Shown: in pieces, positions 23,701-42,233 of the stretch
How the letters are laid out: each line of letters opens with the position of its first letter
Numbering within the stretch: position 1 is the stretch's first letter
Source of the DNA: a virus
Lineage: Duplodnaviria; Caudoviricetes
DNA length: 53,373 bases
Virus record (IMG/VR): IMGVR_UViG_3300041964_000194
Coordinates: 1 to 53,373 of that record
Reading direction: 5' to 3' (one strand)
Translations under genes and position numbers: made by a program
Notes under the pieces: generated by a model
The model's input: the letters and a program-made list of their open reading frames with translations, nothing else
Database searches by the model: none
Told to the model about the DNA's origin: nothing

Positions 23701-24962
23701 ACCAACTGCTGAGTGAGAAGATGCCGCCGATCGCCTGCTGGAGCTGAACGGGCAGCTTGGCACGCTGAACCAGCAGCGGATTGAGGCGGAGATTGCCGCT
23801 CAAGAACGGCTGCGGCAGGTGCAGATCGAAGCCCTGAATCAGGAGCTAGCAGCGGCGCAGAATCTAGCCGAAGTGCAGCAGGGATTGAACCAGATCCAGT
23901 TCAATTCACTCAGCAGTCAAAACAACCTGCTATCCGCTCAGAGCGGCTTGGTTCAAGCTCAGTCTGCTCTAGTGCAGCAGCGCCTGGGCTATGCGCTGGA
24001 AGAAGCCGAAGCCGCAGGAAATACCGCTCAGGCGGAAAGCCTCAGACGGCGAATTATCAACGAGCAAATCGCCACCCAGGAAGAGCAATTCGCGATCGCC
24101 CAAGACCAGCTTGACCTGAAGCGAGAGCAGGTGGAGCTGGAGGCGATCCAGCGGCAAATTCAAGCCGAAATCGCAATCACAGAGGCGGAGGTGGCAATCG
24201 CCACGGCGCAAATCAACGGCGAGAATCAGCAGGTCATCGCTGGCCTGGAAAGGATTCTGGGACTGCGCCGACAGCAACAGCAGGCGATCGACGACCAGGC
24301 ACGGTCCCAGCAGCGCGTGTTGGATTTAGAGCAGGAGACGCTGAACGTTGAGCAGCAGCGCGATCGCGAGCGACTGACACGGCAGCGGACGCTGGAAGCC
24401 CGCGACAACAATGCAGCCGGAGAAACGGGCAGCAGTGACACTGGCGACACTGATAGCAGCAGCACTGGCGGCGCTGGTAGCAGCGGCAGATCTACGATGC
24501 AGCCGGCAGGCGAACCGAACTGGCGGCGCTGGTAGCAGCAGCACTGGCGGCGCTGGCCTTACCGCTTATGGAAACCTCGCCGTTGGGCAGCTCGATCGCG
24601 CCTCAGAACTGCGGTCGGGCGGCGTATCCGACACGCTGGGACGGCTGCAAAACAGCGGCAACAATCCCTACTCCGAGGCAATTCTGGCGGCATCAGGGCG
24701 AACCGATGTCCTGAAGCTGCAAGACCTGGCGCGCAGTGGCTTCCAAGGCAATCTGCAAGCCGGACGGATTGCAGCGGCTCGCGATCGCGGCGAAATCGGC
24801 GGCGGCCAGGTTGAGCAACTAGTCGATCGCCTGTCGCAGGAAATTGGCAAGCTCGCCTTCAGCGGCAACACGTTCAACATTTCGGCAGCCGATGCAGTGG
24901 AAGGCGTTCAGCAGGTATCGGCTGACTTTATGCGGGCAAGAGTATCTGGAGCCGGACTATGA
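20722..24962 (+). CDS. Tape measure protein (~1400 aa, several indels)
   Basis: TP901-like core (AAKVVDVLAQTQDAGK, AESAISGTRQ), a hydrophobic TM block and long Q/E/A coiled coils; contiguous ORFs change frame. Confidence 0.85.
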
Positions 24963-25415
24963 GCAAGGGAATCACACTGGTCGGCGGCGGCATCACGCTG
25001 CCTTAAAACTTTTTTCGGGTTCGACCTTTCCGCGAGAGCAAATCACGCCAGCGATCGGCGTAGGCTTTTCTGCCTACGGCACGCCCAACACGGACGGCAC
25101 TAGCTACGAACCGAAGCACATTTGGAACTTCGTGGCGATCGTTTCGCCTGCCGACGCTGAGCTGCTGGACGTGCTGGAGACAATCGGCAGAACGGAGAAT
25201 ATCTTGATCTACGACTACACTCGGCGAGTGTGGGATACAGCAGCGCGATCGCGGGCGCTTGCACCAGGCGCGAGTGAGGTGACCAAGGCAGCCAAACCGG
25301 ATATTACGCGCAGTTTTATGGCCGAGTCACCCAACCGATCAAACCTGAAGAAGACGGCGCTTACCTCCTTTGTGCGGTGCAACTGACCGAGACCGATCGA
25401 GTGCTACCAGCGTAG
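24959..25415 (+). CDS. Distal tail protein-like (frameshifted)
   Basis: ATGA overlap with the tape measure stop; ~150 aa; call is by synteny. Confidence 0.5.
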
Positions 25416-25422
25416 GAACGCT
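25412..25422 (+). promoter_or_regulatory. Late motif GTAGGAACGCT upstream of tail-tip gene
   Basis: Overlaps the upstream TAG; ends 23 nt before ATG 25446. Confidence 0.6.
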
Positions 25423-25445
25423 ACGGCAGTCTCCCTCCCTGCCGA

Positions 25446-28258
25446 ATGGTCGTCGATCGCCGCTCTCGCCGCTTCAAAATCATCATTGTTCAGCCTGGAG
25501 AAACCGAGTCCACTGGGCTGGATGTGAGTGCGATCGTTGCCTCTTTTGAAGGCGGCAACAATGCGATCGGCCAGTCTGGGATTTGCTCTTTTACAGGCGA
25601 CCTGACGCTCAACGCCTATTCGCTGGGAAGTGGCATCAATACCAATCCCCGCAGCGATCGCAAGCGCTGGGCGCGAGGCAATCGCGTCATCATCTATCTG
25701 GCCGACAGCAGCGGCACTCTGCTTAAATACAAAACCTTACACATTCTCAAAGCACCGTTAGCGCCAACGCCACAGACGCGCCCAACGCTGCAAATCTCAA
25801 CCGGAGACAAGCTCAGCCTGCTGTCGTTCCGGCAGCCACCCGGAGACGAGAGCGGAGTCGAACCGGGAACCAGCAAGACTCGTTTGCAAGTGGTGAACGC
25901 CCTGCTCGCAGCAGCCGGAGCGGGCATGGTGTTCGGGTCGATTCCCGGCAACGTGCCCTGGCCGTTGCAGAAGCTCTGCAACGAATCATTCATCCAGGAA
26001 GCAGGGCAGATTGCCTTCGCAGCAGGGCGATATCTGTGGGTCGATCGAGCTGGAACGGTTCGCGCCAGCGCCCTGCCGCTCGACAACTCTGGCTCAGCGA
26101 TCGCACGCTCATCATTGGGCAGGATGAGCTGATTTATGAGCCGATCGAAGTCGCGGAAACGCCTGCCGAGGTCGTTCGCTGCATCGGCAGCGAGTATCTG
26201 ACCAGCTTTACCTCTGACTACACCAGGAGCGAAAACGAGTCCTGGGGACCAGCGGCGATCGTCAGTCCCAACGCAGGCGGAAAGACAATTCTGCTGCAAG
26301 AGACGATCGAGGAAACCTGGTCCGGCTCGGTGCGGAGCGTGCGGACTCATCGAGTCGAGCCGCGCGGCATCTTGTTCCTGAAGTGCAGAGCAACCGCACG
26401 ACGCTGGTTCCCAGCCTCAGCCAGGAAGAAAATTTTATTTACGAACCCAGCATCGAAGGCAAGCTGCTGAGAATTGAACGGTCAGCTCGCAGGCCATACG
26501 GCGTCGTGCTGCGCGAATACATGGCAACCCAGTCGCCGCTGGAGCAGGCGTTCAACCGCAGCAATATCATTCCGGCTGAGCGGACGACGACAACCTACAG
26601 CTACGAGAAAGGGCAGACCAGCGATATCTCCACGACCACAGCCGAGCCGCAGGGAGCGATTCTGCCGACTGAGGACTGGACGTATGGAAACCCAACATTT
26701 TTAGTTACTGCCAGCGCAGAGAAGCAGTCCTGGGAGGAGCTGTATCCGAGCGAGTGGCAATACAAAAAGCTGACTTATGCCGCCGCAGCGCGAGAGTATC
26801 CCGAAGTCATTGAGGCGATGCCACCCGAGTCGCCGACTCAGCCAAGCTGGGCGTCCTGCTGGTTGGCAAGCAAACAGTCACCTCCAACTCCGGCCAAGCC
26901 CAGCCACCCGCGCCCGATCGCCGCAAGCCGAAGGTCACGGTAAAGGAAAGCCCGATCGAAGGCGAGGCGAAGTTTAAGAGCTACGCAGGCTCGGAGTTTC
27001 AGGAGCGCGAGCGGGTTTACGACGTGCCCTATGCCACCCAACAGGAACTGGACTTGGCCGCTCAACGGCTGGGCAAGCTGCTGATCGGGCGCAACCAGGG
27101 GCAGCAGATTGGCTTCGCCCTGGACGACTACTGGCTTAGCGATCCGCCGCCGTTACAGACGATCGCAGTGACGGAGCCGGATGGCTCGAAGCAGAAATAT
27201 CTGCTCGACACCTCACGATCTCACTGGATGCGCGGACTGCCACTTGGGAGCAAACGGCATCTGGCTCGGCAGCTTGAAAACCAGCGTCATGAGTTCCACT
27301 GGTGAGACGGTCGAAGTGCTGGATCTGCCTTACCGTCAAGAGTTCAGCATGACCAGTCGATCGGATGGACGCGCAGAAATTCTCCTGTCGCCTTATTCGC
27401 TCGTTCCTCAGACGCACGAACTGCTCAGCCGCTCAGATGGGCGCGCAGAATTCTCGACGCTGGAGATGACTGGCGGAGATGACGGCAGAGGAACCTTCAC
27501 GATCATCCCAACACTGGCTAGCAATCGTGACGGCAGATCAACCTTCACAGCCGTGGTCAAATCCACGCTGACCAATAATGTCGCGGCGGCTTGGAACTTC
27601 AACGGCAACTTTACCGATGCCGTCGGCAGCAACAACCTGTCGATCGTCAAAACCTTCTCGGAGCTGGGAATGTTTCTTTTGTCAGCGGGAAGGTTGAGCA
27701 GGCCGCCTGCTGGACCGCATTGCCTATCTGAGCTGCCCTAGCCACTCAGCGCTGGGGCTGAGCAGTGCCAACAATTTCACGATCGCCTGCATTGCTTCAT
27801 ACACAGAAGCCAACCCTAATCTCAATCTTGCAGGTAAGTGGAGCGACGATTTCACCTCGATCTATTACGACAGCTTCCCCGAATATGCGCTGCGCCTCTA
27901 TACCAATTCCGGTGGCACAGGTTTCAGGTTCAGGCCGGATTCAATGCGGCTGCTGTCAGCGGCGGCATCGTAGCAGGCGTTTATCTGGTCGTCGGCTGGC
28001 AAGACGCCTTCAACCTCGCAGCTCGGCGTCTGGGTGCGCAGCTTCGACACCGGAACCGTCTGGTCTGCCACGACCACATATAGCGGCACTCGCAACTCAG
28101 AAGCCATCAGCAACTTCAGGGTTGGAGAGCAAAACACTACTGGCTCGCCTCCTGATATCTGGATTGACGGACTGGCGATCTGGCGGCGAGCGCTGACTAA
28201 CGGCGAGCGCAACGACTTGTACAACAACGGTTTGGGGCGCGAATACCCCTATCTATAG
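25446..28258 (+). CDS. Tail tip/hub protein with C-terminal LamG/ConA-like domain (many indels; may be more than one gene)
   Basis: Chain of overlapping ORFs; the C-terminus AAWNFNGNFTDAVGSNN...IDGLAIWRRALTNGERNDLYN is LamG-like. Confidence 0.6.
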
Positions 28259-28941: not shown

Positions 28942-30300
28942 TGGACGCCGCCGACAGCGCCAGGGATTTGCTCCGCAAGCGCCTGATGCGATCGCGGATG
29001 CAGCAGATTGAAGACTCGATCGCTCGCCAGCAAGAAATCGACACCACGCCCGCGCCGCTGCTCTATGAAGGGCTATGACGTAGAGCGGCAGCAGGCTAGG
29101 GCTTCAACCGATGGAGGCGAAGTTCATGTTCCGGTCATCACGAATGGGGCGATCGCAGAAGGTTCCAGCATTATCGGGAGTGGCGGCGTGATTGAGGGCA
29201 GACCCAGAGTGATTACAGAAGAAACCAGCAGCCGGACGCGCACGGCTCCCGGTCGTGGCCTGCCTATTTGAGGCACTACAAGAGCTTACGGCGGCGGCGA
29301 AGCGCTGCCATCATGCCGCAGACGACGCTGTATCTGCGCGTAATGGGCGAACCGTTGAGCTGCTGAATATTGCCAATCGGCTGAGCAACCGTCGAATCGA
29401 CTGGCATCACGCCGCTGTTTTTCTCGATCGTGGAGCGGCCTCGCCGCGCCGTGATTGTGCAGGGCATCACCGTGGCCGGCTGAAGCCTTCGGAGAGGGCA
29501 TCGCAGCAGATCGGTTATCCATACACCAGTGCGGCTGCATACCTGGATTGTGGACCCCAGCAACGGGCGATTGATTGCCACTCACGAGCAAATCCTGGGC
29601 GATCGCTGACCGACCAGACTTATCTATTTGGCACTTTCCAATCGGCTGGCCTGGAACGCTCAACGCCATGCAGAACGGGATGTTTCCAAAAGCGATCGAG
29701 TATCCTGCTGCGCTGGCGAGCTGGCAGCAGAATCTAGTGACCAGCGAGCTGACGGACATTCGGCAGCCTGACAGCCTATCAAGCTGTGCAGCCACAAAGC
29801 TGGGCGCGGGCTGACATGGCTGGCTTCTATCCTTTCCTTAATCCGGTCGCCAAGGCCAACCAGCTCACTCGCCTGCGCGTTTTTCGAGATGCAACTGGCT
29901 ATCAGCCGTCGCTGCCTGGTCTGTTTGGCAGCAGCCCAGTCGTGGCGATCGAAGTTGCACCCATTGCCCAGATCGACCAGGCGCTATTTGAGCCGGAGTC
30001 AGTGTTTCAGTTCAGGCAGCGCCTGCCGCAGCGAGCGGACCTGATTGCCGACTATCCATTTTTGGGCAGTGGGGATTTGACCTCAGCACCCAGCTCAGCG
30101 GGTTGTTCTATCCCTTCGACAGCATCGCCGCGATCGCGACGATCGCGCAGTTGCTCGCCGCCACGCCCAGCGACGGCTTCGGGATATTCGGCAGAACCGA
30201 GCTGGTGTTTGCGGACGTGGGCATTCCTGGATCGGGCACGATCGTGCGGCGGCGACCATCTCGCTACTTTCGTTTGTTGAACGCCTTGGGAGCGACTTAG
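28941..30300 (+). CDS. Hypothetical tail-region protein(s), heavily frameshifted
   Basis: TAATG coupling at 28941 and a chain of + strand ORF fragments; gene number is uncertain. Confidence 0.35.
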
Positions 30301-30302
30301 GT

Positions 30303-30578
30303 ATGGCTAAAAAAAACTGCCCGCGATCGGCTCAGATTCGCCTGCAACAGCAACAGCAGGCTTATGTCCAGCGCGCCACTCAGGACGATCGCCGACCCAT
30401 CAGCGGGACGTGCCTGGGCTACGATGCCGAGGCCGTTGGATATCGCATCCAGATTCCTGGCGGCGGCATCATTCGCGCCAGCAGCCTCACCAATGGCGCG
30501 ACCGAAACGGGCACTCGCCTGCGAGTCAACACGGCGCGAGGCAGCGTGCTGGCAACCATCAACGGAATGCCGAGGTAA
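30303..30578 (+). CDS. Hypothetical protein
   Basis: 91 aa ORF tightly packed in the operon. Confidence 0.6.
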   Translation: MAKKNCPRSAQIRLQQQQQAYVQRATQDDRRPISGTCLGYDAEAVGYRIQIPGGGIIRASSLTNGATETGTRLRVNTARGSVLATINGMPR

Positions 30579-30580
30579 GC

Positions 30581-30865
30581 ATGAACCTTTCGATCGTCGA
30601 TCGCATAATGTTAATGGCTGCCCAGAGCAACCGCTTCCAAGCCTGCCTCCCGATTGAGGGCGTCGTCGCAGGTTATAGCATCAGCGGGCAGGGCATCGAG
30701 ATCCACGTCCAGAAACCTGGAGACATCGATCGGCTCCGGTCGATGGAGGCAGTAGTTCTGCAAGCGGCTCGACTGATAGCCGGAGTCGAATATCTAAGTC
30801 TCTGGTTTTGCGGCGAGCTGGTCTGCGTGTTGGAGCGAAGTGAACTGGCACAGTCGATCGAGTAG
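30581..30865 (+). CDS. Hypothetical protein, 94 aa (last gene of late region)
   Basis: GAGG RBS and ATG 30581 (MNLSIVDRIMLMAAQSNRF...). A second diverged copy at 36434 shows synonymous changes, which supports coding. Confidence 0.7.
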   Translation: MNLSIVDRIMLMAAQSNRFQACLPIEGVVAGYSISGQGIEIHVQKPGDIDRLRSMEAVVLQAARLIAGVEYLSLWFCGELVCVLERSELAQSIE

Positions 30866-31029
30866 TCCAAAACTGAGATGCGAGAGACGTACTACAACGC
30901 TGGACTGATTTTGGACTCGATCGACCTGTAGCACGTTTTGTAGTACGAGTCTCAAGCCTGATTCTGTCGTGAGACTGGCAGACCTCGAAAAATGCTGGAC
31001 TAAACCGCTAAAAACGCCTCAGCGTGTGA
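30609..31029 (+). repeat. 421-bp imperfect direct repeat, copy 1
   Basis: TGTTAATGGCTGCCC...CAGCGTGTGA is colinear with 36434-36854. Confidence 0.9.
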
Positions 31030-31140
31030 CGACTATCAACTGTGGAATGCGAGTGTGAAGCATGACCCTATCGACCGTCGATCGCATGGCTTAGTTCGTC
31101 GCTCATCCATTGGAAGACAGTGTTAGTTTTAAGCAATCAG

Positions 31141-32925
31141 TCATTCAGCTAGGTCATCAGGAGCGTTGTTCACAATCCATTCTGTTAGTGCTACTCCGTA
31201 TCTCACTTTGTTGTCCTGAAGAGACATGGCTGTCAGAAGACTAATGAAAAGATCTGTCAGGATTTTTTGTTCCGTCTACCTCTTCTAGCCACTGTTGCGT
31301 GAGCGGATCAGCAGTGCTTGAATGTGGCTGAAAATATTTGTCTCCGTCCACGTTTTTGTAACACTGTTCAACCTCCTCCGAGGTAACTGATAGATTCTCA
31401 GAGCTAAGAACTGTACTAATTGCACCAGGGGTTTAGTAGATAGTATTCATACATCTTCCGCGCCAAAACGATACTTTTCCATTGCTTCGACGCGTCAAGA
31501 TCTGCTCGCTCTCTCGGAGTGCGCTTCTCCCGATCGAATATAAAGCCGATGGCGGGCGGCAATAAACCTCGTCCCTGGCTCAGGCGCTGGTAGATTTCAA
31601 AAACTGTTTTAGAAAACATGCAACAAAATCACCAGTTTGCAGTACTCCCATAATCTGTGTACCAACAAAGGAAGCCTTAAAATCTTCTCTACATTATGGG
31701 GAAGCACTCTTCTTCTGTTTTCCCTTCTACCCATAAGATATTAATCTGCTCCAAATGTGTCAGTAATTTTGCTCCAACCTCCTTAAGAAACAAGCTCCAT
31801 CTGTCGATTTCCGAAACGTCTATTGTCTCTACATCGCTTTCAAACTCAGTCTTACGAACTAAAAAAAGATTTCAGGATTTGTTGCAGTTACCGCTGTTGG
31901 GGAATGCGTTGTAATAATAAATTGATGCTCGAATGAAGCTTCAAAATCTCGATAAGTTTTCTAAGAGCACCTGGATGCAAAAAGCTCTGTGGCTCGTCAA
32001 TAACTATAGTCTGTGGCTGAGCCGAATTAATAACAACATAGAGTATTGCTAGAACTTGTCCAATTCCTGTTCCACTTTCCGATAGTGGCACTGCCAGATC
32101 ATTCCGCTCATATCTTGATCATGATGCCAGATAAGAATCTGAACTCGATTTCCACCAATTGGGTATGGTGTATACCCTGAATGGATGGAAAAACAGTTCT
32201 GGCAAAGAGAAGGAACCTGTCAAAGCGAGTTACGATTAGATTAGCAATAGATTATACTTGTAGCAAGATTTTCAGCGTTATTTGCTAAGTATGAGTTATT
32301 TCCGATTTCCCAGCTTCCGATGTTTACACCTTCGCCTTGAACATATAAATTTGAGCGAAAACAAATTTGCTAATTTAATTCCATATGATTCTTCTAGATT
32401 AAAATTTCCATAATTTCCTTGTTCAAGCTGCCTCGTTTCCAAATTAAATAAATATTCACTCCAGGCAGGTGTGAGGATGAGACGGTTGGTAACTAGCACA
32501 GCCTCTAAGCTAGTTTCTATATTGGTTAAAAGTGCTGAAGAGGAATTTGCCTTGTCTATAAACACACACTAAGCCCTAGACCTATGTATTGAAGTCAAGA
32601 ATCGTTGCAGGGAATTATTAAGGTCACGTTCGGCAGAAGGAATCAAAAAACTTGCAATTTGTTGTAGCGATTCAATGACTCTTTTGGCTCTAGAGAGAAA
32701 TATATGCGGCATTCAGCGACTGGATTGAATGTCTGGCTTGAGTCTGGTTGAGGTAGAGTTTATAGGCTTGCGATGAGGGTGGTTTCAAACTGTGAGCTAA
32801 TGCCTCTAGAAGTGCTGTTTTTCCAACATTATTCTGCCCAACAATTACGTTAAATCCTGGCTCAAGAAATAACCTGAATCAAGAAAGCTTTTATAATTAA
32901 CAACTTTGAATATGGATATATACAT
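31141..32925 (-). CDS. OLD-like ABC-ATPase plus TOPRIM nuclease (many indels; 3' end approximate)
   Basis: Walker A GQNNVGKT, SGTG signature, IDEPQSFLHP, TTHSP, and TOPRIM WVEGKTEE and FIFDRE; AT-rich. Confidence 0.75.
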
Positions 32926-33023
32926 GTAAAATTAACCTTTACGTGGTTTGTTAGAGATGGAGCAGTTAAGACAGCTATTGCCTATTCTCGATCGGGATAC
33001 CACTTAAGCCATCCATTCTAAAT

Positions 33024-33057
33024 AATCAAACCCCCCGCTGCACACAGGGGTTTGATT
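33024..33057. terminator. Hairpin terminator
   Basis: AATCAAACCCC / GGGGTTTGATT inverted repeat downstream of the minus-strand operon. Confidence 0.5.
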
Positions 33058-33096
33058 GACTGAGCGAGCGTCAGGCTACAATCGCGCTCATGTTTG

Positions 33097-33378
33097 CTAT
33101 TTCCACCATGCCGCGTTCCTGTCATTCTTCATCGTGGCGACAGTCAGAGCATGACTGGTAGCCTGCTCTAGCAGATTCGTGATCCGATCCCATTCCTGCT
33201 TGCAGTCAGCGTCTTCATCCAGCCGCGCCTGACTGCTGATCAGGTCAGCCAGTCGATCGAGTAGTTCGGCTAGGCCGTGACGATTGGCTAGGGTGTGCAG
33301 CTCGTCTCTGAGTAGGTTGACCTCACGCCGCCTGCACTGGCAAGCGATCGGGCTTGGGGGTTTAGCTTCAGTTTGCAT
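33097..33378 (-). CDS. Hypothetical protein
   Basis: GGAGG RBS before MQTEAKPP; helical. Confidence 0.6.
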   Translation of the reverse strand: MQTEAKPPSPIACQCRRREVNLLRDELHTLANRHGLAELLDRLADLISSQARLDEDADCKQEWDRITNLLEQATSHALTVATMKNDRNAAWWK

Positions 33379-33527
33379 GGTGTCCTCCCTACCAAGTGCT
33401 GAGCTGTGACTGTGGAACTTGCAGCACGGGCTGCACTGCCGCTGCTGGGCTGTCAGGATGCAGTTTGATGCTGTAGTGCCATTCGCCATCCAGGAACGCT
33501 AACCCTGCGATCGTGCCGAAGTTGCCC

Positions 33528-33938
33528 TCAGCTCACAACCGAGTCATCGAAGCCAAACTTTGGCTTTTTGTAGCCTCTAGGCAGTGGTAGGCTCTCGGCT
33601 GACCACCATCCGGTGCTGCTTTTGCACACTCCTAGCTTTTGCGCCTGCCGCACGATGTCAGCCAAGCGCAGCACGAATGGAATGTAGGCTGGGTACTTGC
33701 TGTAGTGCCTGCCCCATCTGGCAACCTCCCAGACTGCAAGCCCAGTCGCACGGCAAAGCGCATCTTCACAGGCTTGCTTGTAGTCGGGATCAGTCAGGGG
33801 ATAGCTCACCCACTTGTGGCAGAACTCAGCAGGCGTCATCAGCTGATGCACAACGGTGGCGATGTAGCTCAGCAAGGCTTTGGTGCGTTCATCGCGGGAA
33901 AGGGCAAAGGCCGGGATCAGAGTGATATCTGCTTGCAT
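33528..33938 (-). CDS. Hypothetical protein
   Basis: GGAGG RBS; coupled to the upstream gene. Confidence 0.6.
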   Translation of the reverse strand: MQADITLIPAFALSRDERTKALLSYIATVVHQLMTPAEFCHKWVSYPLTDPDYKQACEDALCRATGLAVWEVARWGRHYSKYPAYIPFVLRLADIVRQAQKLGVCKSSTGWWSAESLPLPRGYKKPKFGFDDSVVS

Positions 33939-33941
33939 GGC

Positions 33942-34271
33942 TTAGCCCTCCCCTTGCTGCTGGCATGGAGGACACAGGCAGCAACGCAGGCTGCGTTCGT
34001 AGACGTACTCAGTCGTTTCGTCGGCTAAGAGTGCCTCTTGTGGTGTTTTGCCAAAGATGTCGCTGATGGTGTAGCTCCAACCCCAATCGCTGGTACTCTC
34101 TGCCAGTGCCTCTAGCGGGCAGATGTAGCGCATACCAACGACAACGCCTTTGCGCTTGCAATAGTAGACCTCTTGAAACAGATGGAACTTGGGAGCGGGC
34201 ACATCGGGCGGTAGGACAAACGAAACTTGTGCCCCAACTAACGGGGCATCTGCGGATACGATATTCATCAA
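33942..34271 (-). CDS. Cyanobacterial phage-type hypothetical protein (DUF1392-like)
   Basis: PAPKFHLFQEV...GVVVGM...WSY pattern; family assignment is tentative. Confidence 0.55.
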   Translation of the reverse strand: MMNIVSADAPLVGAQVSFVLPPDVPAPKFHLFQEVYYCKRKGVVVGMRYICPLEALAESTSDWGWSYTISDIFGKTPQEALLADETTEYVYERSLRCCLCPPCQQQGEG

Positions 34272-34375
34272 GCTGTACCTCGGTTTAAGTGCTTAGGTGC
34301 AGTGGAAGCCCTCTGGTGAGCCGTCGAAAGTACACCAGGGGGTTTAGCTTTTGTTGAGCGATCGCTCTTAGTTTC

Positions 34376-34621
34376 TTAGTCGTTGGCAGCGCCTTCGTCT
34401 ACCAAAAAACTGCTCATCAATTCGTCAAGCTTCTCAAGCTGAGAAGGATTCTCTAGTCGCCAGCGATCGATACCTTCTCTAATCCACCGCTCCAGTTGGG
34501 CGGTATCGCTGCGATCCTCCAGAATTGCTACGCCCTTTAACCCAGCAAGAAGTTCATACGAAATCTTGTAGTTCTGACGCTTAGCTGGTTTTTTTGCTCT
34601 TCCCACTACGGCTTGTGTCAC
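34376..34621 (-). CDS. RHH-like regulator
   Basis: AAGGAG RBS then GTG 34621; RQNYKISYELLAGLKGVAILEDRSDTAQLERWIREG. Confidence 0.6.
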   Translation of the reverse strand: MTQAVVGRAKKPAKRQNYKISYELLAGLKGVAILEDRSDTAQLERWIREGIDRWRLENPSQLEKLDELMSSFLVDEGAAND

Positions 34622-34858
34622 AAGGCTTTTCTCCTTAATTGAACAACACAAACCCATAATTACACGATTTGAAGTAAAACGTATATACGATTGCATACGA
34701 AAAACTGATAACTGAGCGCTAAACTAATCGGGATTTAGTATGTATTAATGTAGTAATCGTATGTACGATATGCCATAATAGGTACAGAGAAAGCGCCCCC
34801 GACTCTCACATCTGAAGCGCTTCTCTACATCCAAACCCTCATTCAAGGATTTGCACCA

Positions 34859-35091
34859 ATGGTAGCTCAACTACAAGACCGCTTCGACATCCGCTCGATC
34901 GAAACCCCGACGATTTATCTGCATATCGTGACCTTGATTCACCGTCGCACGGGTCATGAAGTTTGCCTCAACATCGAAACCGACTCAGCCCGCTATGCGT
35001 GGTGAGTCGCGAAATTGCCCATCAGAAGGTAGTTCGCAAGCTGCTCGGTTACGAGATTTACGAAGTTCTCGACTGTAACGAACCGTTCTAA
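34859..35091 (+). CDS. Hypothetical protein ~77 aa (one indel; not in ORF track)
   Basis: AAGGA RBS; MVAQLQDRFDIRSIETPTIYLHIVTLIHRRTGHEVCLNIETDS...YEVLDCNEPF. Confidence 0.5.
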
Positions 35092-35148
35092 GTCGATCGG
35101 GCTTTGGGGATGCCTTCATCCCCTTCACTTCCTTCACCACTGCTCACC

Positions 35149-36383
35149 ATGCGCCTCTCCTACCAGTACCGCTTACGTCCAACCAAAGCTCAGATCGCCA
35201 TTATGGAGAACTGGCTTGAACTGCTGCGACGGCAGTACAACTACCGCTAGCGGAGCGGTTTCAACTGGTGGGAGCAAAATCGCTGTGATGTCAATGCTGC
35301 GCTCATCCGCCGTCTTCCCGCAGTTGCAGGATAAGCTCAGCCGCTAAAAGTCAGCAAGGCTGATTTGCTACTGACCAGAAGCGCGATGTTTCGTGAATAC
35401 GAAGACGCTGTATGCTCCTGTGCTATGGAGCGATTGCAAAGGGATGTATATGGGTGCTTCATTTGACGCGCGCGTTATTGCGTTTTATGGTAGATGAGAT
35501 TGTGGCGCTGGCTAGGGGACTGCCAGACGGCAGATCTGGTGTCAGGGATTAGATTTGAGCTGAGATTCAGAGCGTGCGGATCGCTGCTGTATCACTATCA
35601 GATTGTTCAGCTGATGGCATCATGAGCAGTTTACATGATCATTTTTGGGGTAGCGGTCAAGCTGAGCTGCATCGCCCTTCGATAAAGCGATCACCGTCAG
35701 GATACTGTCAGACTAGTTACGCGAGAGCTGATCGGTTGTATGGAAATCACTTCAGTGCTGATGCGATATGTGACCAGAACTCAGTCCCGGCGCGCAACAG
35801 TGGACAACACGATCGGCATTGACCTAGGCCTAAAGTCCTTTCTGGTCACAAGTGAGGTGAAGCGGTAGACATCCCCAGCGCTATCGCAAAGCTGAGAAGC
35901 GGCTGAAGCGGTTGCAGCGACAGTTATCCAAAAAGAAAAGGGGTCAAAGCGACGGGCTAAGGCAGTCAAGCGTGTTGCCAAAGCTCACCTAAAAGTTGCC
36001 AATCAGCGCCAAGATTTTCACCACAAAACGGTGAACTGGCTGCTAGCCAATCTAAGTTTATTGCTCATGAAGATCTCCATATCAGGGACTAGCGAGAACA
36101 AGGCTAGCCAAATCGATCAACGATGCGGGCTGGGTCAATTTCTGACAATTGCCGCTTACAAGGCTGAAGAGCTGGGGGCGGAACATTGCCAAGAAATCCG
36201 GCCAGAACCACGATCGACTGCTCAGACTGTGGGGCAGCAGTGCCAAAAACACTGTCTGACCGCTGGCATAATTGCGTGTGTGGTGCGTCCTACGATCGCG
36301 ACCACAACGCAGCCAGAAACATTAAGCAAAGGGCGGTGGGGCATCCCGTCCAGCTCCTGGAGGCGATCGGGATACGAGCCTGA
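35149..36383 (+). CDS. tnpB: TnpB RNA-guided endonuclease (IS200/IS605-IS1341 type); sequence degraded or low quality at ~35300-35800
   Basis: MRLSYQYRLRPT...RRQYNYR N-terminus; RuvC IGIDLGL, IAHEDL, DRDHNAA; Zn finger CSDCG...C.CG. No tnpA is present. Confidence 0.88.
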
Positions 36384-36453
36384 TGAAGGAGAAGCCAGCG
36401 CCACGCAACGCCGTAGCGCTGGAGCATGTCCACTGTTAATGGCTGCCCCAAGC
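36330..36453 (+). ncRNA. Predicted TnpB omega/reRNA 3' scaffold and guide (5' bound uncertain)
   Basis: GAGAAGCCAGCGC...GCGCTGGAGCATGTCCAC right-end-like hairpin ends at 36433; the predicted guide is the flank TGTTAATGGCTGCCCCAAGC. Confidence 0.5.
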
Positions 36454-36854
36454 AACCGCTTTTCAAGCCTGCATCCCGATTGAGGGGTCGTCGCAGGTTT
36501 TATAGCATCAGTGGGCAGGGAATCGAAATCCACGTCCAGAACCTGGAGACATCGATCGCTCCGGTCGATGGCGGCGTGGTTCTGAAGCGGCTCGACTGAT
36601 AGCCGAGTACGAATATCTCAGTCCTCCTGGTTTTGCGGCGAGCTGGTCTCGGATTTGGAGCGAGTCAACTGGCACATGTCGATCGAGTAGTCCAAAGCTG
36701 AGATCCGAGAGACGACTACAACGCTGGACTTGATTTTGTGGACTCGTGATCGACATTGTAGACATTTTGTAGTATGATCTCAAGCTGATCTGTCGTGAGA
36801 CTGGCAGAGTCGTAAAATGCTGACAAAACGCTAAAAAACACCTTCAGCGTGTGA
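36434..36854 (+). repeat. 421-bp imperfect direct repeat, copy 2 (5'-truncated allele of gene 30581-30865)
   Basis: Begins exactly at the tnpB right end and aligns to 30609-31029. Confidence 0.9.
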
Positions 36855-37126
36855 GCTTGAGGCTTTGACTAGTTTTTGCTTATTTGCCTTGTACAGCAGG
36901 CCATCTAGGGCGATCGATCGGTGGAACTAGAGCAACTGTCACAGTGTTGATGGAGCCAGCAAAATCTGTGGAATCTAAAAATAGGTGGAACAATTCGGCC
37001 TAAAAGCCGAATTTGAGGTGTTATACAGAAAGATTCTGCTTATCTACCTGCTACGAGATCTTAGCCGGAAACGTTCTGTCCAATAATTGTTGGGCAGCTG
37101 AGTAGGAGAGATTTTTTGAGGCCAAT

Positions 37127-38053
37127 ATGAACAGAATTGAGTTTTTGCGTTTTCGCCGATCTTACGAGTGGGTATTGCGTCAAGTTCTACTAGATCTTGA
37201 ATTTTTTATTGAAGATTTAGTTGGAATTAATGTTTATGCAGTAACACATCGACTAAAGACTTTTGAAAGTGCTCTTGAAAAATCAAAGCGGCTTAATCTG
37301 AAAATTGATGAAATGCAAGACATCGCTGGCATTAGAATTGTTGTAGCAACTTCAGATGAAGTTGCGATTCTTGCTCGCTTCTTCTCTAGAAAGGCTGATT
37401 TAAAAGATCTCATTATCAAGTCAGACGAAATAATTGATAGAAAAAATGGTTATCGAGCAAGGCATTTAGTCTTAGAGTTCTCAGGGCACTATTCGCGCTC
37501 AATGCATTCAGCCTTTGTAGAAGTTCAAATTCTCACTCTTTTGCAAAGCACTTTCAATTATATTTCAAGAGCTTGGGTATACAAAGCTGATTGCGCATTA
37601 ACGGATACATGGCGCTCCAATTTCCAAAGATTATCCAGTGATTTGGCGGAAATCGATCAAAGAATTGCTCAGCTACAGAAGCAAGTTGTTGAATCCTCTG
37701 TATCTTCAGCGCCAAACGATCCTCTCACTCCTTTTTCTTACCAACAAATCGTTACTGAAACCTTCGGAGAAACCATCAAAATAAACGATGCAGTAGATAG
37801 CGTACAAATGTTAATTGATCTGGGTTGTGATACAAATGGAAAATTACAAGATTTCTTCGGAAGAAATGACATTTTAAACATGCGTGAACAGATTATAGCC
37901 ACGAAGTCAGAAGCTGGACAAGCTTTTGCAGAACTTGTAACTAGCCTGTCAATCCATAGTTTTTATATGATGTTTGGTCTTCGAGTTGACTCGACCAAAG
38001 AATTGATTCAATGGCTTAATCAAGCTAAGCCAAAAAATGAAAGCTCACAATAG
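37127..38053 (+). CDS. RelA/SpoT synthetase-domain nucleotidyltransferase (SAS-like) with C-terminal extension
   Basis: HRLKTFESALEK, QDIAGIRIV, NGYRARHL, VEVQILT, WVYK. Confidence 0.85.
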   Translation: MNRIEFLRFRRSYEWVLRQVLLDLEFFIEDLVGINVYAVTHRLKTFESALEKSKRLNLKIDEMQDIAGIRIVVATSDEVAILARFFSRKADLKDLIIKSDEIIDRKNGYRARHLVLEFSGHYSRSMHSAFVEVQILTLLQSTFNYISRAWVYKADCALTDTWRSNFQRLSSDLAEIDQRIAQLQKQVVESSVSSAPNDPLTPFSYQQIVTETFGETIKINDAVDSVQMLIDLGCDTNGKLQDFFGRNDILNMREQIIATKSEAGQAFAELVTSLSIHSFYMMFGLRVDSTKELIQWLNQAKPKNESSQ

Positions 38054-38133
38054 TTCACACAGCTCAACAGCACTCACACACACCGATCGCCGAGGATTGA
38101 TTATTTCAGGAAAATTGAATTAATACGCTGAAC

Positions 38134-38569
38134 ATGACTGAACAAGAGAAGTGGGACTACATAAATAGGTTAGAGGAGGAGCTTTGCTGGGCGGTGTAGT
38201 TATCTCTGAGTGGTCAACTTTTCTTGCTAAAGATGCAGAGCTAGCATTTTGTTCAGGAGCTAATTTGGCGGCTATTCTAGCGGCACAAGCTGCTATTGAG
38301 TCCCATTTAAGATACGAGTACTTTGATCCGATTGAAACGAAAGGTTGGGGATTGTACCGCCTTCTTGAGAATGTGCAGTTACCACTTGGCTTAAAGAGCA
38401 ATTTACATAAGCTTAGACGTTTAGAAATCAGTGGGTGCATGTTGAAGATCCAGCTCACGATGCGGATCTCCTTAACAAGCCAGAGTACTATTCAGCAGAG
38501 CTAGAAGAAATGGCAAAACTAGCAATCGAATCTATGTTGAAAGTACTTTACGTAGAGCAGTCGGTATGA
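38134..38569 (+). CDS. HEPN-like protein (two indels)
   Basis: Reconstruction: MTEQEKWDYINRLEEEL...AAILAAQAAIESHLR...LHKLRRFRNQWVH, an R-x4-H motif with an upstream E. Confidence 0.6.
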
Positions 38570-38642: not shown

Positions 38643-39460
38643 TTAAAATAAAGTTCCTTGAACTATTTCTGGTTGTGCCTTACTTGGCTTAGGTGGCCAG
38701 AAAACACCGAGCACAACCCATGTATTGTATGGAAATACTGTGCCCATGAAGAAACGGGTATCCTTGCTTTCGTTACATAGCTCGTCAAGGAACTTGTGGC
38801 GAACGCTTAAAGCTGCTTGGTTTTCATCCCTCAAACGAGCTACTTCATTCAGCCAAAGCACCCCTAGCTCCCAGTCCTCAATCATGGCATTGTGAGGTTT
38901 GTTGCTATCATTGCATTCAAAAACATAGCTAAACTTGTACGGTATTTTGCGAAGAGGTTTTTGAACTGGTCCAAAAAGGGTCAATTGATCGAACAAAGCT
39001 TGCCATTCTGGTTTCCATTCAGGATCAGCGGGTTCAATCTTTAAATCAAGTATCCTTGTAGGCTGCACAATACCAAGTGATACATGTTCAGATTGATGCA
39101 GTTCCCGTAACTGCTTTACCGTATGAACCGAAATCCGATCGATAATTTGACGCCGCTCTCTCCATCCATCTTTGTGGAGAGCGGTTCTCCTAAAACGCGG
39201 AGCGTATCTAAAATCGGTTTTCTACTTTCTTTCCTCCGATCATTGCCAGCTCCCTGGGGAAAGAGATCAACTTCTATCCACTGATATTTACGGAATTGTT
39301 GATTTCTGGGTCTGTAACGGTAGTCTACTGGATAAAGCCGTACCCATTCGCCCTGTTCAGTTACACCAGCTGTACAAACAAGTTCTTGATAACCTCTAGA
39401 TGGATGTGGGTAGGTCATCACAGTAATAAGAACTTTAGTTCTGATTGCCTGATTACTCAT
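38643..39460 (-). CDS. DUF488-partner protein, dual-OB-like (frameshift at ~39170)
   Basis: LITVMTYPHPS..YQELVCTAG...WVRLYPV and IPYKFSYVF...IEDWE motifs. Confidence 0.65.
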
Positions 39461-39462
39461 GC

Positions 39463-40327
39463 CTAACATCCCAAATGCTTGATCGGCATATCGATTAAAG
39501 TTGTTAGGTGTTGAGCTAAAACATTGCGATGGCAAAATTTTGGATTAGCTTCCATACACACGAGGACACTAGGGTCAGATTGCAATAACCTACTTACATT
39601 GGTCAGATCCTTTTCACGAGAGGGAAGATTACAACGATAATTTTCAAACAGGGCTGTGTATTTATGATGAGAGTCTAGATGTTCTCGTTCTGAGCTTGGT
39701 ATTCCCAAACCAGGAAGGTGTTGATAGTCTATTTTCAAAGAGCTGCATAAGCGTAAAAGAGTACTTTTATGGAAACCATATCGGCGTGAAATGGGATTAT
39801 ATCGGACATCAATCAAACGTGATATACCGGATTCCATAAGAAGATTTAGAAACTCATCAACGGTTTTGCCTTCATAACCAGCAGTATAGATAGATGTCTC
39901 AGCAACTGGGCGTCTTCTCTTTTCTTCCTCCAGGAAGATCACTGTTGATTGTAAACCAAGAGTACTTGTCGTAAATTAGACTTATTAACTGTTGTCCAGA
40001 TAATTTCCCGTAAATCTCAGAAATTTGGCAAATATCTTTAGTGACATCATTTGGCAAATTTATTTCTAGTTCTTCCCTAAGAGTAAGATTCCATCGATTG
40101 TCAAGTCCTTTTTCCAGGAAACCATTACGAATAAGTGAATCGGTTTCCTGATTGAGAGTAAAGGAGTAAGGACCGTACCGATACGGAATGAATTGATAAA
40201 ACGTTTTCCCGCCATGAGATGGCGTTTCACAAGACAATAAAAATGCCCACTTCATTATTTGCAAGCTGGAAGCTGCACCTCCAACTTGCTGAAGCATCAT
40301 CAGTAGGGCTTTTTGTCGGTGTAACAC
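39463..40327 (-). CDS. DUF488 protein with N-terminal winged-helix/Panacea-like domain (frameshift at ~39930)
   Basis: C-domain IYTAGYEG, LIDVR..PISRR.GF.K, LVCMEANPKFCHR; N-domain YQFIPYRYGPYS. Confidence 0.8.
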
Positions 40328-41117: not shown

Positions 41118-42233
41118 ATGGACGTTTCAGATCTTGTCGAGGCCGCAAACCAGAGGCTTAGGCTGGCACGGATTGCCGCGTCGATCGAGCTGCGCGGCAA
41201 AGAGCAGCGACTCTACCTGCGAGCCACACTGCCGCCAAAACCGGGACACCCGCGATCGTATCCCTACCAGCAACGCATTTGTCTGAACCTACTAGGAACA
41301 CCCAGAGCAGTGAAATTTGCAGAGGCGCAAGCAAAACTGCTGGGAGCGGAGCTGGAAACAAAAAGCTTTGATTGGAGCCGCTGGGACTATTCACCCCATC
41401 GCCCCACAGCAGAGACGATCGCGGACTGGGTGCAGCGATTTGAGGAGGATTTTTGGAGCCGGAGAGAGCGAGATTCTGGGCGAGAGGCAACCTGGAAGAA
41501 TTATCTGAAGGTATTTCGGCATCTACCACTCGATCGCCCGCTCACCAGTGAAGTGCTGCGAAAGCGAATTAAAGACACAGACGAAGACTCGCACCATCGA
41601 CTACAAACCACACTGGTGCTTTGGCGACTGGCGAAATTTGCTCAGATCAAGGGCTGGGAAGATTTGATCAAGTTGAAGGGCAGATACTCTCCCAAGCGAG
41701 TAAATCCTCGATCGCTGCCAACTGACGAGACGATTGCCAAGGTGCAGCAGTCGGTCAGCGACCCTGGCTGGGCATGGATTATCGGTATGCTTGCGGCTTA
41801 TGGTCTGCGCAATCACGAAGTTTTTAAGCTGGACTTGAGCCAGTTTCCCAACATCCGGGTGGAACCAACCAACAAGACTCGCTCTTCTAGGCTGATTTAT
41901 CCGCTGTATCCCGAATGGGCTGAGCGCTGGAAACTAGGCGATCGAGTTCTACCAAACGTACAAATTCGACCTGGGATGGGCAACTCTGCGCTGGGTGCCA
42001 AAATTACGGCGGCGTTCTGGTATCAAGATTTGCCTTTCACGGCCTACGACTTGCGCCACTGCTTTGCCCGCCGCTGCTTCGAGTTCGGCATTCCGATCGA
42101 GACCGCAGCTCGACTGCTGGGGCACTCGGTCGATCGCCATCGGGAGACCTATCAGGCGTGGATTGGCGAATCATCGCACCGGTTTGCCTATGAGCGGCAA
42201 ATTAACAGGAGCGATCGACCTCTGCCGCCCTAA
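41118..42233 (+). CDS. Tyrosine integrase with N-terminal arm-binding domain
   Basis: RLYLRATLPPKPG N-domain; YGLRNHE, YDLRH, LGHS...H...Y. Confidence 0.93.
   Translation: MDVSDLVEAANQRLRLARIAASIELRGKEQRLYLRATLPPKPGHPRSYPYQQRICLNLLGTPRAVKFAEAQAKLLGAELETKSFDWSRWDYSPHRPTAETIADWVQRFEEDFWSRRERDSGREATWKNYLKVFRHLPLDRPLTSEVLRKRIKDTDEDSHHRLQTTLVLWRLAKFAQIKGWEDLIKLKGRYSPKRVNPRSLPTDETIAKVQQSVSDPGWAWIIGMLAAYGLRNHEVFKLDLSQFPNIRVEPTNKTRSSRLIYPLYPEWAERWKLGDRVLPNVQIRPGMGNSALGAKITAAFWYQDLPFTAYDLRHCFARRCFEFGIPIETAARLLGHSVDRHRETYQAWIGESSHRFAYERQINRSDRPLPP

Follow-up and report, generated by a model that had tools for sequence, protein, structure and literature searches.

Does a tnpB gene whose predicted guide matches a gene of its own phage mark an RNA-guided homing nuclease, or does the match simply follow from where the element lies? 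The question arose from an earlier note on a 53,373-nucleotide stretch of caudoviricete DNA (the window, analyzed here at its full length), which read positions 30609 to 36433 as a possible TnpB-driven homing cassette carrying a replacement allele of the gene it disrupts together with defense cargo, with a decayed insertion sequence (IS) as the fallback. Our analysis makes it probable that tnpB instead belongs to a TnpB-only IS200/IS605-family element that forms the right margin of a block of 5,344 bp inside the second copy of a duplicated gene and that the guide match is a trivial consequence of paralogy.

The tnpB gene, its right end, and its predicted guide

The gene lies on the plus strand at 35149 to ~36410 and was assigned to the IS200/IS605-family RNA-guided nucleases on the basis of domains, motifs, and homologues. 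Its fragments matched HTH_OrfB_IS605, OrfB_IS605, and Cas12f1-like_TNB in the expected order (PF12323, E = 4e-7; PF01385, E = 7e-5, which falls short of the curated threshold; and PF07282, E = 3e-10), and PF07282 was also recovered in a six-frame search. A 64-amino-acid piece is 81 to 91% identical to intact cyanobacterial TnpBs of 404 to 406 amino acids. When the fragments were aligned with P0001 to P0003, all three RuvC acidic motifs were locally present (IGIDLG at ~35808, AHEDL at ~36060, and DRDHNAA at 36294), as the earlier note had stated, and so was the zinc motif CxxC...CxC, in the form CSDCG...CVCG. The RuvC and zinc-motif residues probably correspond to the catalytic ones in TnpB of ISDra2. 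Among intact homologues the nearest is P0002, for which solved structures of ISDra2 TnpB were matched with an E value of 3.8e-38.

As assembled, tnpB cannot yield a protein. Where a single ORF of ~400 amino acids would be expected, comparison with three intact homologues gave 20 to 26 frameshifts and 0 to 2 stops; when intact relatives were counted in the same way as a control, 14 of 15 runs were free of frameshifts and the other showed a single one. The longest ORF overlapping the gene spans 150 amino acids and is partly out of frame, and the middle part (35290 to 35800) carries many small insertions. Neither a Y1 TnpA nor a serine/resolvase-type TnpA gave a match in the window at E ≤ 1, which agrees with the earlier statement that tnpA is absent, and no second TnpB was found in the 53 kb, the tnpB copy being single.

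The right end lies at 36433, where the window sequence ends with ...ATGTCCAC. In 15 of 15 aligned relatives the conserved block ends at ...GTATGTCAC, in the form ...GGGAGTATGT(T)CAC, and the sequences diverge immediately into unrelated flanks, such that the position given in the earlier note was borne out. An omega-RNA-like scaffold (36254 to 36433, plus strand), delimited by this conservation stop and by RNAalifold, overlaps the 3′ end of tnpB and runs up to the right end; its predicted fold has 31 pairs, 9 of them with compensatory changes, and the stems are kept in the window. The 16 nucleotides directly 3′ of the conserved right end, TGTTAATGGCTGCCCC (36434 to 36449, plus strand), form the predicted guide, and the premise that the guide is the right-end flank holds.

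In ISDra2 and Geobacillus IS605-type elements, RNA transcribed across the 3′ end of tnpB matures into an omega-RNA whose last ~16 nucleotides come from the flank, and the TnpB-RNA complex cuts DNA in which a TAM is followed by a match. Normally, the empty site is re-cut after excision, and recombination restores the element. By the same logic, a transcript through the 3′ end of the present tnpB would yield an omega-RNA with a flank-derived guide of ~16 nucleotides; TnpB with this RNA would cut a TAM followed by a match, and an empty site would be re-cut and the element put back.

The duplicated gene and the block inside its second copy

The small prophage gene matched by the guide, copy 1 (30581 to 30865, plus strand), is an intact ORF of 94 amino acids. 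Its protein family has 10 members that are 91 to 99% identical, and nine full-length uninterrupted homologous proteins are encoded on other contigs. Pfam and PHROG searches with the copy 1 protein gave no match; its AlphaFold model had a pLDDT of 65, and Foldseek against the PDB returned no fold match at E ≤ 0.001. Alignments and repeat families place copy 1, its ribosome site, and ~190 nucleotides downstream in the first unit of a tandem duplication (30565 to 31044, plus strand). This unit is followed by a 5′ stub of copy 2 (31045 to 31089, plus strand), which consists of the ribosome-site region and the first 28 nucleotides of an ORF that starts at 31062 (MTLSTVDRM.); within repeat family D9, positions 31058 to 31087 are identical to the ribosome site and start of the intact gene (30577 to 30606) at 27 of 30 positions (90%). 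The 3′ part of copy 2 and its downstream sequence lie at 36434 to 36854 (plus strand), a 421-nucleotide segment that is 87% identical to 30609 to 31029.

Joining 31089 to 36434 restores the reading frame (MTLSTVDRMVLMAAPSNRF... in copy 2 and MNLSIVDRIMLMAAQSNRF... in copy 1), which indicates, at the level of sequence, that the small gene is tandemly duplicated and that its copy 2 is interrupted by a clean 5,344-bp insertion with tnpB at the right edge. The inserted block (31090 to 36433), whose limits are given by this join and the alignments, sits after the 9th codon of the 94-codon gene, with no target bases lost or duplicated. In stating that the gene's 5′ part was joined to no left end, the earlier note had missed the stub. 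The unit that it drew, 30609 to 36433, does not fit with the stub, which also shows the supposed replacement allele to be a pre-existing tandem duplicate.

The match of the guide to the phage's own gene is real. The 15 nucleotides TGTTAATGGCTGCCC occur exactly at 30609 to 30623 and at 36434 to 36448, with GCATAA before them in the intact copy, as had been reported; at ≤2 mismatches, the sequence has two matches against 0.06 expected from shuffles. The predicted guide matches copy 1 at 15 of 16 positions, and its 12 TAM-proximal positions match perfectly. The guide matches copy 1, however, because copies 1 and 2 are paralogues and the guide is the right-end flank: judged from the alignment, the 15-nucleotide identity is the start of the 421-nucleotide duplicated segment and not an independent coincidence. 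The bases before the match are CATAA in copy 1 and CATGG at the used site, the two that adjoin the match being different, and the residues at the TAM position are IM in nine of nine family members covering it, as in copy 1, versus MV at the used site. If the TAM is the sequence flanking the insertion, this difference implies that copy 1 and IM-type alleles would be no obvious targets. The predicted guide falls within the protein stretch M10 to Q20, in which none of the 10 family members varies.

In GC content, the block is a mosaic (~38% at 31.1 to 33.0 kb, ~57% at 33.0 to 34.3 kb, and ~51% across tnpB). Its left part holds an OLD/GajA/AriA-like AAA_15/AAA_21 ATPase gene (31100 to 32925, minus strand), recognized by PADLOC and Pfam matches on fragments and by frameshift-aware alignment to P0128, P0132, and P0155. 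The homologues are ~606 amino acids long, and 319 of 606 residues are identical to P0128; by eye, the C-terminal part appears Toprim-like. The gene is broken by 25 to 30 frameshifts and 1 to 5 stops, and its 3′ end lies within ~15 nucleotides of the block's left junction. Next come four intact small ORFs on the minus strand (33097 to 34696 in the ORF list: 34376 to 34696; 33942 to 34271, of the "PKFHLFQ" family; 33528 to 33938; and 33097 to 33489), for which no Pfam or PHROG matches were found and which are followed by a terminator-like hairpin at 33050 to 33032. Directly upstream of tnpB, homology identifies a small ORF of ~77 amino acids (34859 to 35091, plus strand) with one frameshift at ~34994; its full-length homologue is a single ORF 1.2 kb upstream of tnpB at two Pantanalinema loci (L008 and L010), and homologues of the PKFHLFQ-family gene adjoin related tnpB genes in other genera. 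Since both genes recur in this way, part of the block may travel with tnpB. As a whole, the block, which comprises a shattered OLD-like ATPase gene, a four-gene operon, and the small ORF with tnpB, probably arose in several steps or was imported by recombination and is probably not one transposon.

A conserved hairpin leader (34783 to 34835, plus strand) follows a −10-like CATAAT upstream of the small ORF at 34859 to 35091 and is 87% identical over 53 nucleotides to a stretch ahead of another small ORF at a Nostoc locus (L015). We considered this hairpin, with CATAAT as the TAM, as the left end of an IS and rejected it in favor of a leader because in Nostoc the hairpin comes after TATAAT, and the small ORF that it leads there is a different one and lies on the opposite strand. 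We also considered, and dropped, an inversion with CTTAG (31090) and CTAAG (35089) as its ends, as it made the map no simpler. Rfam searches over 30000 to 38500 gave no credible family (best match, fluoride riboswitch, E = 0.52), the hairpin leader and the omega-RNA region being without a family, and promoter and terminator scans did not rise above shuffles.

Both ends of an IS200/IS605 element carry subterminal hairpins. The right-end hairpin is present here, and no left-end-like hairpin was found at 29000 to 37500 among the matches listed, in which the right end of the window, apart from itself, is matched over 12 nucleotides at best. Relatives with a left end (L020, L033, L038, L039, and L043; L009) have a ...GCAGCAGCCCCGCGCTCTAC... 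hairpin at the left boundary, among the matches listed. The left boundaries of relatives otherwise show only loose, weak upstream motifs, TTAAY or TTGAG, and similarity among relatives begins ≤26 nucleotides from the tnpB ATG in 46 of 60 pairwise comparisons. The upstream DNA common to related tnpB genes is of variable length, whereas on the other side the shared sequence always stops at the right end. At none of 57 related right ends did the 16-nucleotide flank recur within the ~7-kb locus, and none repeated the block architecture.

The nature of the damage and the rival explanations

The damage to tnpB, copy 2 (8 to 10 frameshifts within 255 coding nucleotides), and the ATPase gene consists almost entirely of 1- to 2-nucleotide indels, with few stops, preserved gene lengths, and no deletion beyond a few bases. 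Summed over the three, there are 53 to 66 frameshifts versus 1 to 7 in-frame stops, an indel load 50 to 100 times that of the structural genes. Frameshifts read from whole-window frame decoding are approximate. Over the C-terminal 540 alignment columns of tnpB, which contain about 9 single-base deletions, the differences to L004 at the three codon positions are 0.12/0.09/0.45, compared with 0.23/0.15/0.51 for pairs of intact genes, such that the C-terminal half has no excess of nonsynonymous change. In bacteria, natural pseudogenes show numerous nonsense mutations and deletions of larger size. Because the lesions are 1- to 2-nucleotide indels with few stops and no excess amino acid change, we suspected patchy sequencing error, and most of the indels in the three genes are more likely than not to be sequencing or assembly errors rather than decay. 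In line with this, PDC-M19A, PDC-M19B, and the portal gene, elsewhere in the window, are each split once. The four open ORFs at 33.1 to 34.7 kb, which lie between damaged patches, argue against a uniform error rate.

The three damaged stretches could be true, old pseudogenes: a minimal TnpB IS would have entered copy 2, later insertions and an inversion would have destroyed its left end, and the whole would have decayed in a cryptic prophage. This history, which we consider unlikely but the most serious of the competitors, is favored by the concentration of indels, the left end not found among the matches listed, the GC mosaic, and a CheckV completeness of 61%. It also draws on the middle of tnpB, where the divergence from relatives is nearly even across the three codon positions (0.42 to 0.48, 0.43 to 0.46, and 0.56 to 0.61), a pattern that could reflect true decay instead of misalignment. 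It is at odds with the unexceptional amino acid change in the C-terminal half, the scarcity of stops among the frameshifts, the preserved lengths, the small deletions, the four untouched small ORFs, and the pattern of natural pseudogenes described above. The fallback of a decayed IS comes close to the sequence picture. Alternatively, the duplication itself could be an assembly artifact, in which error-prone long reads or a hybrid assembly placed two haplotypes, with and without the insertion, side by side and left indel patches unpolished. In its favor, the patchy indels come without matching substitutions or stops, and single splits occur in the otherwise well-matching genes PDC-M19A (E = 6e-54), PDC-M19B (E = 1e-36 and 7e-35), and portal. 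A frameshifted relative, P0121, comes from another contig, and the stub (MTLSTVDR, as at the N terminus of P0123) and copy 1 (MNLSIVDR) resemble two population alleles, both of which occur among relatives. We nevertheless regard a false duplication as improbable: the junction at 31031 to 31057 holds ~14 nucleotides of unique filler and the units differ by 13%, which exceeds usual haplotype merging unless inflated by errors, and open frames of 1.5 to 2 kb elsewhere show that most of the contig is accurate.

The headline of the earlier note, an active homing cassette, in a form adjusted to the limits of the block, asks for an intact TnpB with its omega-RNA that cuts the sister copy or uninterrupted alleles in related phages, for which we see a very slim chance; that break repair then copies all of 31090 to 36433, including the OLD-like defense gene, while TAM-position bases protect the resident copy, we hold to be just as improbable. 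A clean 5.3-kb insertion with an exact TnpB right end is unlike a minimal 1.3-kb IS and is the expected product of nuclease-driven gene conversion of a larger cassette. Homology flanks the insertion on both sides, the RNA scaffold is kept by covariation, and the RuvC and zinc motifs are present. If the error-like indels are indeed errors, then tnpB, the scaffold, and the seed-perfect match to copy 1 are all intact, and calling the system inactive would be wrong. The guide would target an invariant stretch, copy 1 departs from the used site precisely in the pair of bases beside the target, uninterrupted alleles exist on other contigs, and what related tnpB genes have in common extends upstream to differing lengths, with the right end as its constant limit on the other side. 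TnpB "restorative homing" and the intronless homing of phage endonuclease genes have both been described (PMC13565253, PMC10055086). As assembled, however, tnpB and the ATPase gene are broken at every one of the sites counted above, as is copy 2; the wild-type alleles have IM rather than MV at the TAM position, such that common alleles may be without a TAM; and the architecture is unique among the 57 related right ends. The stub leaves the cassette with no built-in replacement allele, and the block is a GC mosaic. Neither an empty nor a second occupied site was found in viral and metagenome contigs with copy 1 as the query, in collections that may omit the records nearest to the window. A neighboring tail-like protein yielded no usable empty-site relative in viral contigs, nor did a degenerate DNA pattern for copy 1 residues 7 to 22 give anything usable in viral and metagenome contigs. 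The copy 1 family profile likewise gave nothing usable against 401 genomes of the phylum of G001, and copy 1 gave one weak match (E = 1.3e-4) in the four genomes holding related tnpB genes. These points leave the homing cassette unsupported; it keeps its very slim chance because the lesions resemble sequencing error more than they do decay.

A TnpB-only element that lies in a duplicated gene of a cyanobacterial prophage is the reading that we prefer, and it carries two cautions: when an element enters a duplicated gene, a match between its guide and its own genome can follow trivially, and indels concentrated in patches can give genes the look of pseudogenes. There is a faint prospect, conditional on the indels being errors, that an intact, nuclease-competent TnpB acts as an RNA-guided "intronless" homing nuclease against the invariant stretch of the small phage gene. 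If so, break repair would copy a 5.3-kb block with an OLD-like defense gene and a small-gene module, also found beside related tnpB genes in Pantanalinema and Nostoc, into cassette-free relatives, and two altered bases at the TAM position would shield the resident intact copy. This would explain the clade's sharp right-end stop, variable upstream reach, and lack of a left-end hairpin. It would also be a natural case in which a phage uses a transposon nuclease as an RNA-guided homing endonuclease that drags defense cargo, a link between TnpB restorative homing and phage marker exclusion. A literature search, which was not exhaustive, returned no paper on such homing by a nuclease-competent TnpB.

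Relation to known systems

Free-standing homing endonuclease genes of phages are associated with intronless homing and marker exclusion (PMC13565253). The locus resembles them in that a nuclease gene lies between homologous phage sequences, neighbors could be co-converted, and a small number of base differences may protect the home allele (PMC13565253). Unlike those genes, it would rely on RNA-guided recognition, and its architecture does not recur in relatives.

A second parallel is TldR, a nuclease-dead TnpB that is encoded in prophages with fliCP (Wiegand et al.; PMC10705468). As in TldR-fliCP loci, a TnpB-family gene and guide RNA lie in a prophage beside a homologue of the guide-matched gene, and the resident homologue differs in the TAM or seed (PMC10705468). 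TldRs act as repressors of a host promoter and no longer have the RuvC triad or the C-terminal zinc/RuvC part (PMC10705468), whereas the tnpB of the window keeps the triad and the zinc motif. Also unlike TldR, the guide matches coding sequence of the phage itself, in a copy that stands in tandem with its interrupted paralogue. We considered tnpB as a TldR and rejected this assignment, given that the triad and zinc motif are present.

In our preferred reading, the element itself is ordinary, a TnpB-only one of the IS1341/IS891 kind that is common in cyanobacteria, and it is the setting that is unusual; the likeness to IS891 is presumed. The IS1341 group comprises TnpB-only elements by definition (PMC13565253). 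Unlike members of this group, the element has no left-end hairpin among the matches listed, the inserted unit is 5.3 kb long with unrelated genes, the ORF is shattered as assembled, and 5.8 kb upstream lies an intact paralogue of the flank. It shares with the IS1341 group and ISDra2 the domain set, the RuvC D-E-D residues, and the zinc motif, with P0002 matching ISDra2 TnpB, and also an omega-RNA scaffold that overlaps the 3′ end of tnpB up to the right end and a guide that is predicted to be flanking DNA. As in the IS1341 group, there is no target-site duplication at the 31089|36434 join and no tnpA in cis.

Duplicated gene, inserted block and right end

This locus is best read as an IS1341-type TnpB/omega-RNA element at the right margin of a mosaic block that interrupts one of the two copies of a duplicated gene of the prophage. 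The 421-nt segment 36434-36854 is 87% identical to 30609-31029, which includes most of the intact copy (copy 1; 30581-30865, + strand, 94 aa), and the first unit is followed directly by another ribosome-site region and start of the gene (31045-31089), in which 31058-31087 match 30577-30606 at 27/30 nt. The 5' part of the interrupted gene, which the earlier note had not seen, is thus present as this stub. When 31089 is joined to 36434, the frame is kept and the resulting MTLSTVDRMVLMAAPSNRF... is colinear with MNLSIVDRIMLMAAQSNRF... of copy 1; the family member P0123 begins MTLSTVDR, as the stub does. Given the stub, the 87% identical segment and the in-frame join, we conclude that the gene was tandemly duplicated. 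Copy 2 holds a clean insertion of 5,344 bp (31090-36433), with target bases neither lost nor duplicated.

In an alignment of the window with the 3' regions of 15 relatives, taken from genome contigs, the block common to all ended in ...GGGAGTATGT(T)CAC, with complete divergence beyond; at the 36433/36434 boundary, the window reads ...TGGAGCATGTCCAC followed by TGTTAATGG. The right end had therefore been placed correctly at 36433. RNAalifold predicted 31 pairs in the last 180 nt before this end, 9 of them with compensatory changes, and the stems are kept in the window; this fold would be the expected omega-RNA scaffold. With the predicted scaffold ending at 36433, a guide would start at 36434. 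The first 15 nt from that position, which open the 421-nt segment, occur exactly twice in the window, versus 0.06 times expected, so the reported identity between the right flank and the intact gene is real. The match of the guide to the phage's own gene is not independent, however, since it follows from the paralogy of copies 1 and 2. Immediately 5' of the match, two bases differ (CATGG in the interrupted copy versus CATAA in copy 1), and 9/9 members of the copy-1 family covering that position have IM, like copy 1, rather than MV. Another member, the 57-aa P0121 from a different contig, ends ...DIDRLGRWRQ, its frame being shifted compared with the 94-aa members, a possible sign that related assemblies contain indel errors as well.

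The tnpB gene and the nature of its damage

The pieces of the tnpB relic (35149-~36410, + strand) match three TnpB Pfam domains in order, and the RuvC/zinc motifs IGIDLG, AHEDL, DRDHNAA and CxxC...CxC were all found. A 64-aa piece is 81 to 91% identical to intact proteins of 404 to 406 aa, and the best of the intact homologues, P0002, matched the solved ISDra2 TnpB with an E value of 3.8e-38. No Y1 TnpA, serine TnpA or second TnpB was detected within the window. Both the retention of the acidic RuvC motifs and the absence of tnpA, as originally described, therefore held. Because its catalytic motifs are kept, the protein differs from TldR proteins as presented in PMC10705468, and a TldR identity was rejected. 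A 551-aa relative, P0004, carries the pentapeptide-repeat domains PF13576, PF13599 and PF00805 as well as TnpB domains in a precomputed Pfam list, and may be a fusion.

Frameshift-aware protein-to-DNA alignment gave 20 to 26 frameshifts and 0 to 2 in-frame stops for tnpB, 8 to 10 and 0 for copy 2 (255 coding nt), 25 to 30 and 1 to 5 for an OLD-like ATPase gene in the block, and 1 frameshift for the small open reading frame (ORF) preceding tnpB. Intact relatives, run as a control through the same alignment, had 0 frameshifts in 14/15 runs and 1 in the remaining run. Summed over tnpB, copy 2 and the ATPase, there are 53 to 66 frameshifts versus only 1 to 7 stops, without any long deletion and with gene lengths preserved; in natural pseudogenes of bacteria, nonsense mutations and larger deletions make up a sizeable share of the lesions. 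Over its C-terminal 540 columns, tnpB differs from locus L004 at 0.12/0.09/0.45 by codon position (0.23/0.15/0.51 for intact-versus-intact pairs), yet about 9 single-base deletions occur there, several beside homopolymers. The middle of the gene (35290-35800) is still homologous (alignment score of 35 versus 3.4 +/- 1.8 for shuffles), with 56 gap events, mostly small insertions, versus 15 in a control pair. Outside these genes, single splits occur in PDC-M19A, PDC-M19B and the portal gene, though their profile matches are strong; ORFs of 1.5 to 2 kb elsewhere in the window are open. We lean toward patchy sequence error, in long-read-only or unpolished stretches, as the source of the damage, the alternative being true decay.

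Block content and related loci

The block begins with an OLD/GajA/AriA-like AAA_15/AAA_21 ATPase gene (31100-32925, − strand; homologues of ~606 aa), whose end is no more than ~15 nt from the left junction. It continues with a terminator-like hairpin (33050-33032), four intact small ORFs (33097-34696, − strand), a 160-nt divergent spacer containing a conserved hairpin (34783-34835), and the small ORF (34859-35091, ~77 aa) that precedes tnpB. GC content along its parts, left to right, is about 38%, 57%, 43% and 51%. The 53-nt hairpin (AGAGAAAGCGC...GCGCTTCTCT) is 87% identical to 2116-2166 (other strand) of the Nostoc locus L015, and in both it closely follows a -10-like box and precedes a small ORF by ~25 nt; L008 has a 14-nt part of it upstream of its homologue of the window's small ORF, and no Rfam family was matched. 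Among the matches listed, there was no IS605-type left-end hairpin in 29000-37500, and the right end at 36433 had a best non-self match of 12 nt. TnpA-linked relatives, unlike the window, have a clear ...GCAGCAGCCCCGCGCTCTAC... left-end hairpin, which is seen only in a subgroup with an upstream gene (L020, L033, L038, L039 and L043; L009).

We fetched 79 distinct loci with related tnpB genes, the nearest having ~76% DNA identity to the window. For pairs with at least 80% identity, similarity began no more than 26 nt from the tnpB ATG in 46/60 and reached about the right end; the remaining 14/60 had 219 to 3000 nt of upstream DNA in common. Most copies of this cyanobacterial clade (L004-L064) have common DNA only from start codon to right end. 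Two loci ~100 kb apart on one Stenomitos contig (L004 and L005) contain 7,218-bp stretches around tnpB that are 100% identical, either a duplication that is large and recent or a repeat far longer than the IS. In Pantanalinema (L007, L008 and L010), the DNA upstream of tnpB encodes homologues of the small ORF and the 33942-34271 protein, and an iterated search placed the latter family no more than 3 kb from tnpB in 12/78 loci (these three plus L006, L015, L031, L034, L037, L040, L041, L050 and L062). Part of the block may thus be a module tending to accompany this tnpB clade. The 33942-34271 family, found in several cyanobacterial genera, has the motif P-K-F/Y-H-L/F-F/G-Q, and in L040 its gene adjoins a homologue of window ORF 33097-33489. 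A right-end regex gave 57 matches in 56/78 loci, leaving 22 unmatched, and 0/57 had a second copy of the 16-nt flank (up to 2 mismatches) in the ~7-kb locus; the window's specific architecture is not recurrent among these right-end-matched relatives.

The earlier note had suggested that 30609-36433 could be a TnpB-driven homing cassette bearing a replacement allele and defence cargo, with a decayed IS as its fallback. Restorative homing by TnpB and intronless homing in phages are described concepts (PMC13565253, PMC10055086 and PMC8612924). Several features seen here are expected of such a cassette: a clean insertion, a boundary exactly at the right end, an RNA scaffold and motifs that are preserved, error-like damage, and a resident copy that differs at the TAM position. 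Nevertheless, the duplication was pre-existing, the MV allele of the used site is rare, the architecture does not recur across 57 related right ends, GC content is mosaic, and neither an empty nor a second occupied site was found, so we consider homing improbable. Any present action of the TnpB element on copy 1, or on relatives, is hypothetical. The observation was thus confirmed in part and, of its two interpretations, the IS, decayed or poorly sequenced, is partly supported, whereas the cassette is not.

Prophage setting and neighboring genes

The provirus record (IMG/VR; 53,373 bp) has a cyanobacterial style: GCGATCGC-like motifs are abundant, and the TnpB relatives all come from cyanobacteria. 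Its first ~30 kb comprise structural genes (terminase, part of portal) at 57 to 61% GC, and the tnpB block lies between these and a weak integrase match (41118-42233), in a stretch where GC content is mosaic and defence-like genes occur. The portal gene (4177-5632, + strand) is apparently split near 5070: only 4940-5632 matches PHROG 64 (C-terminal positions 374-531 of 547), and a 317-aa ORF lies upstream in a different frame. At 23700-27250 (+ strand), a same-strand run of ORFs overlaps by 90 to 125 nt in different frames, with frame switches inside the overlaps by codon-usage decoding, suggesting that genes of the tail region contain several further breaks of the frameshift type. PDC-M19B and PDC-M19A (DUF488; 38643-40327, − strand), a candidate pair of defence genes, each comprise two ORFs with a single, frameshift-type break (E values of 1e-35 to 6e-54). 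PDC-M19B profile positions 3-86 fall in 39116-39535 and positions 128-265 in 38643-39068; PDC-M19A positions 141-293 fall in 39463-39942, its N-terminal half being presumably in 39899-40327. Directly after the copy-2 remnant, in 38%-GC DNA, an intact gene (37127-38053, + strand) encodes a 308-aa RelA/SpoT-domain protein that matches PF04607 (E value of 5e-14) and PADLOC PDC-S33 (E value of 3e-19) and may be a defence or toxin gene of the nucleotide-pyrophosphokinase type.
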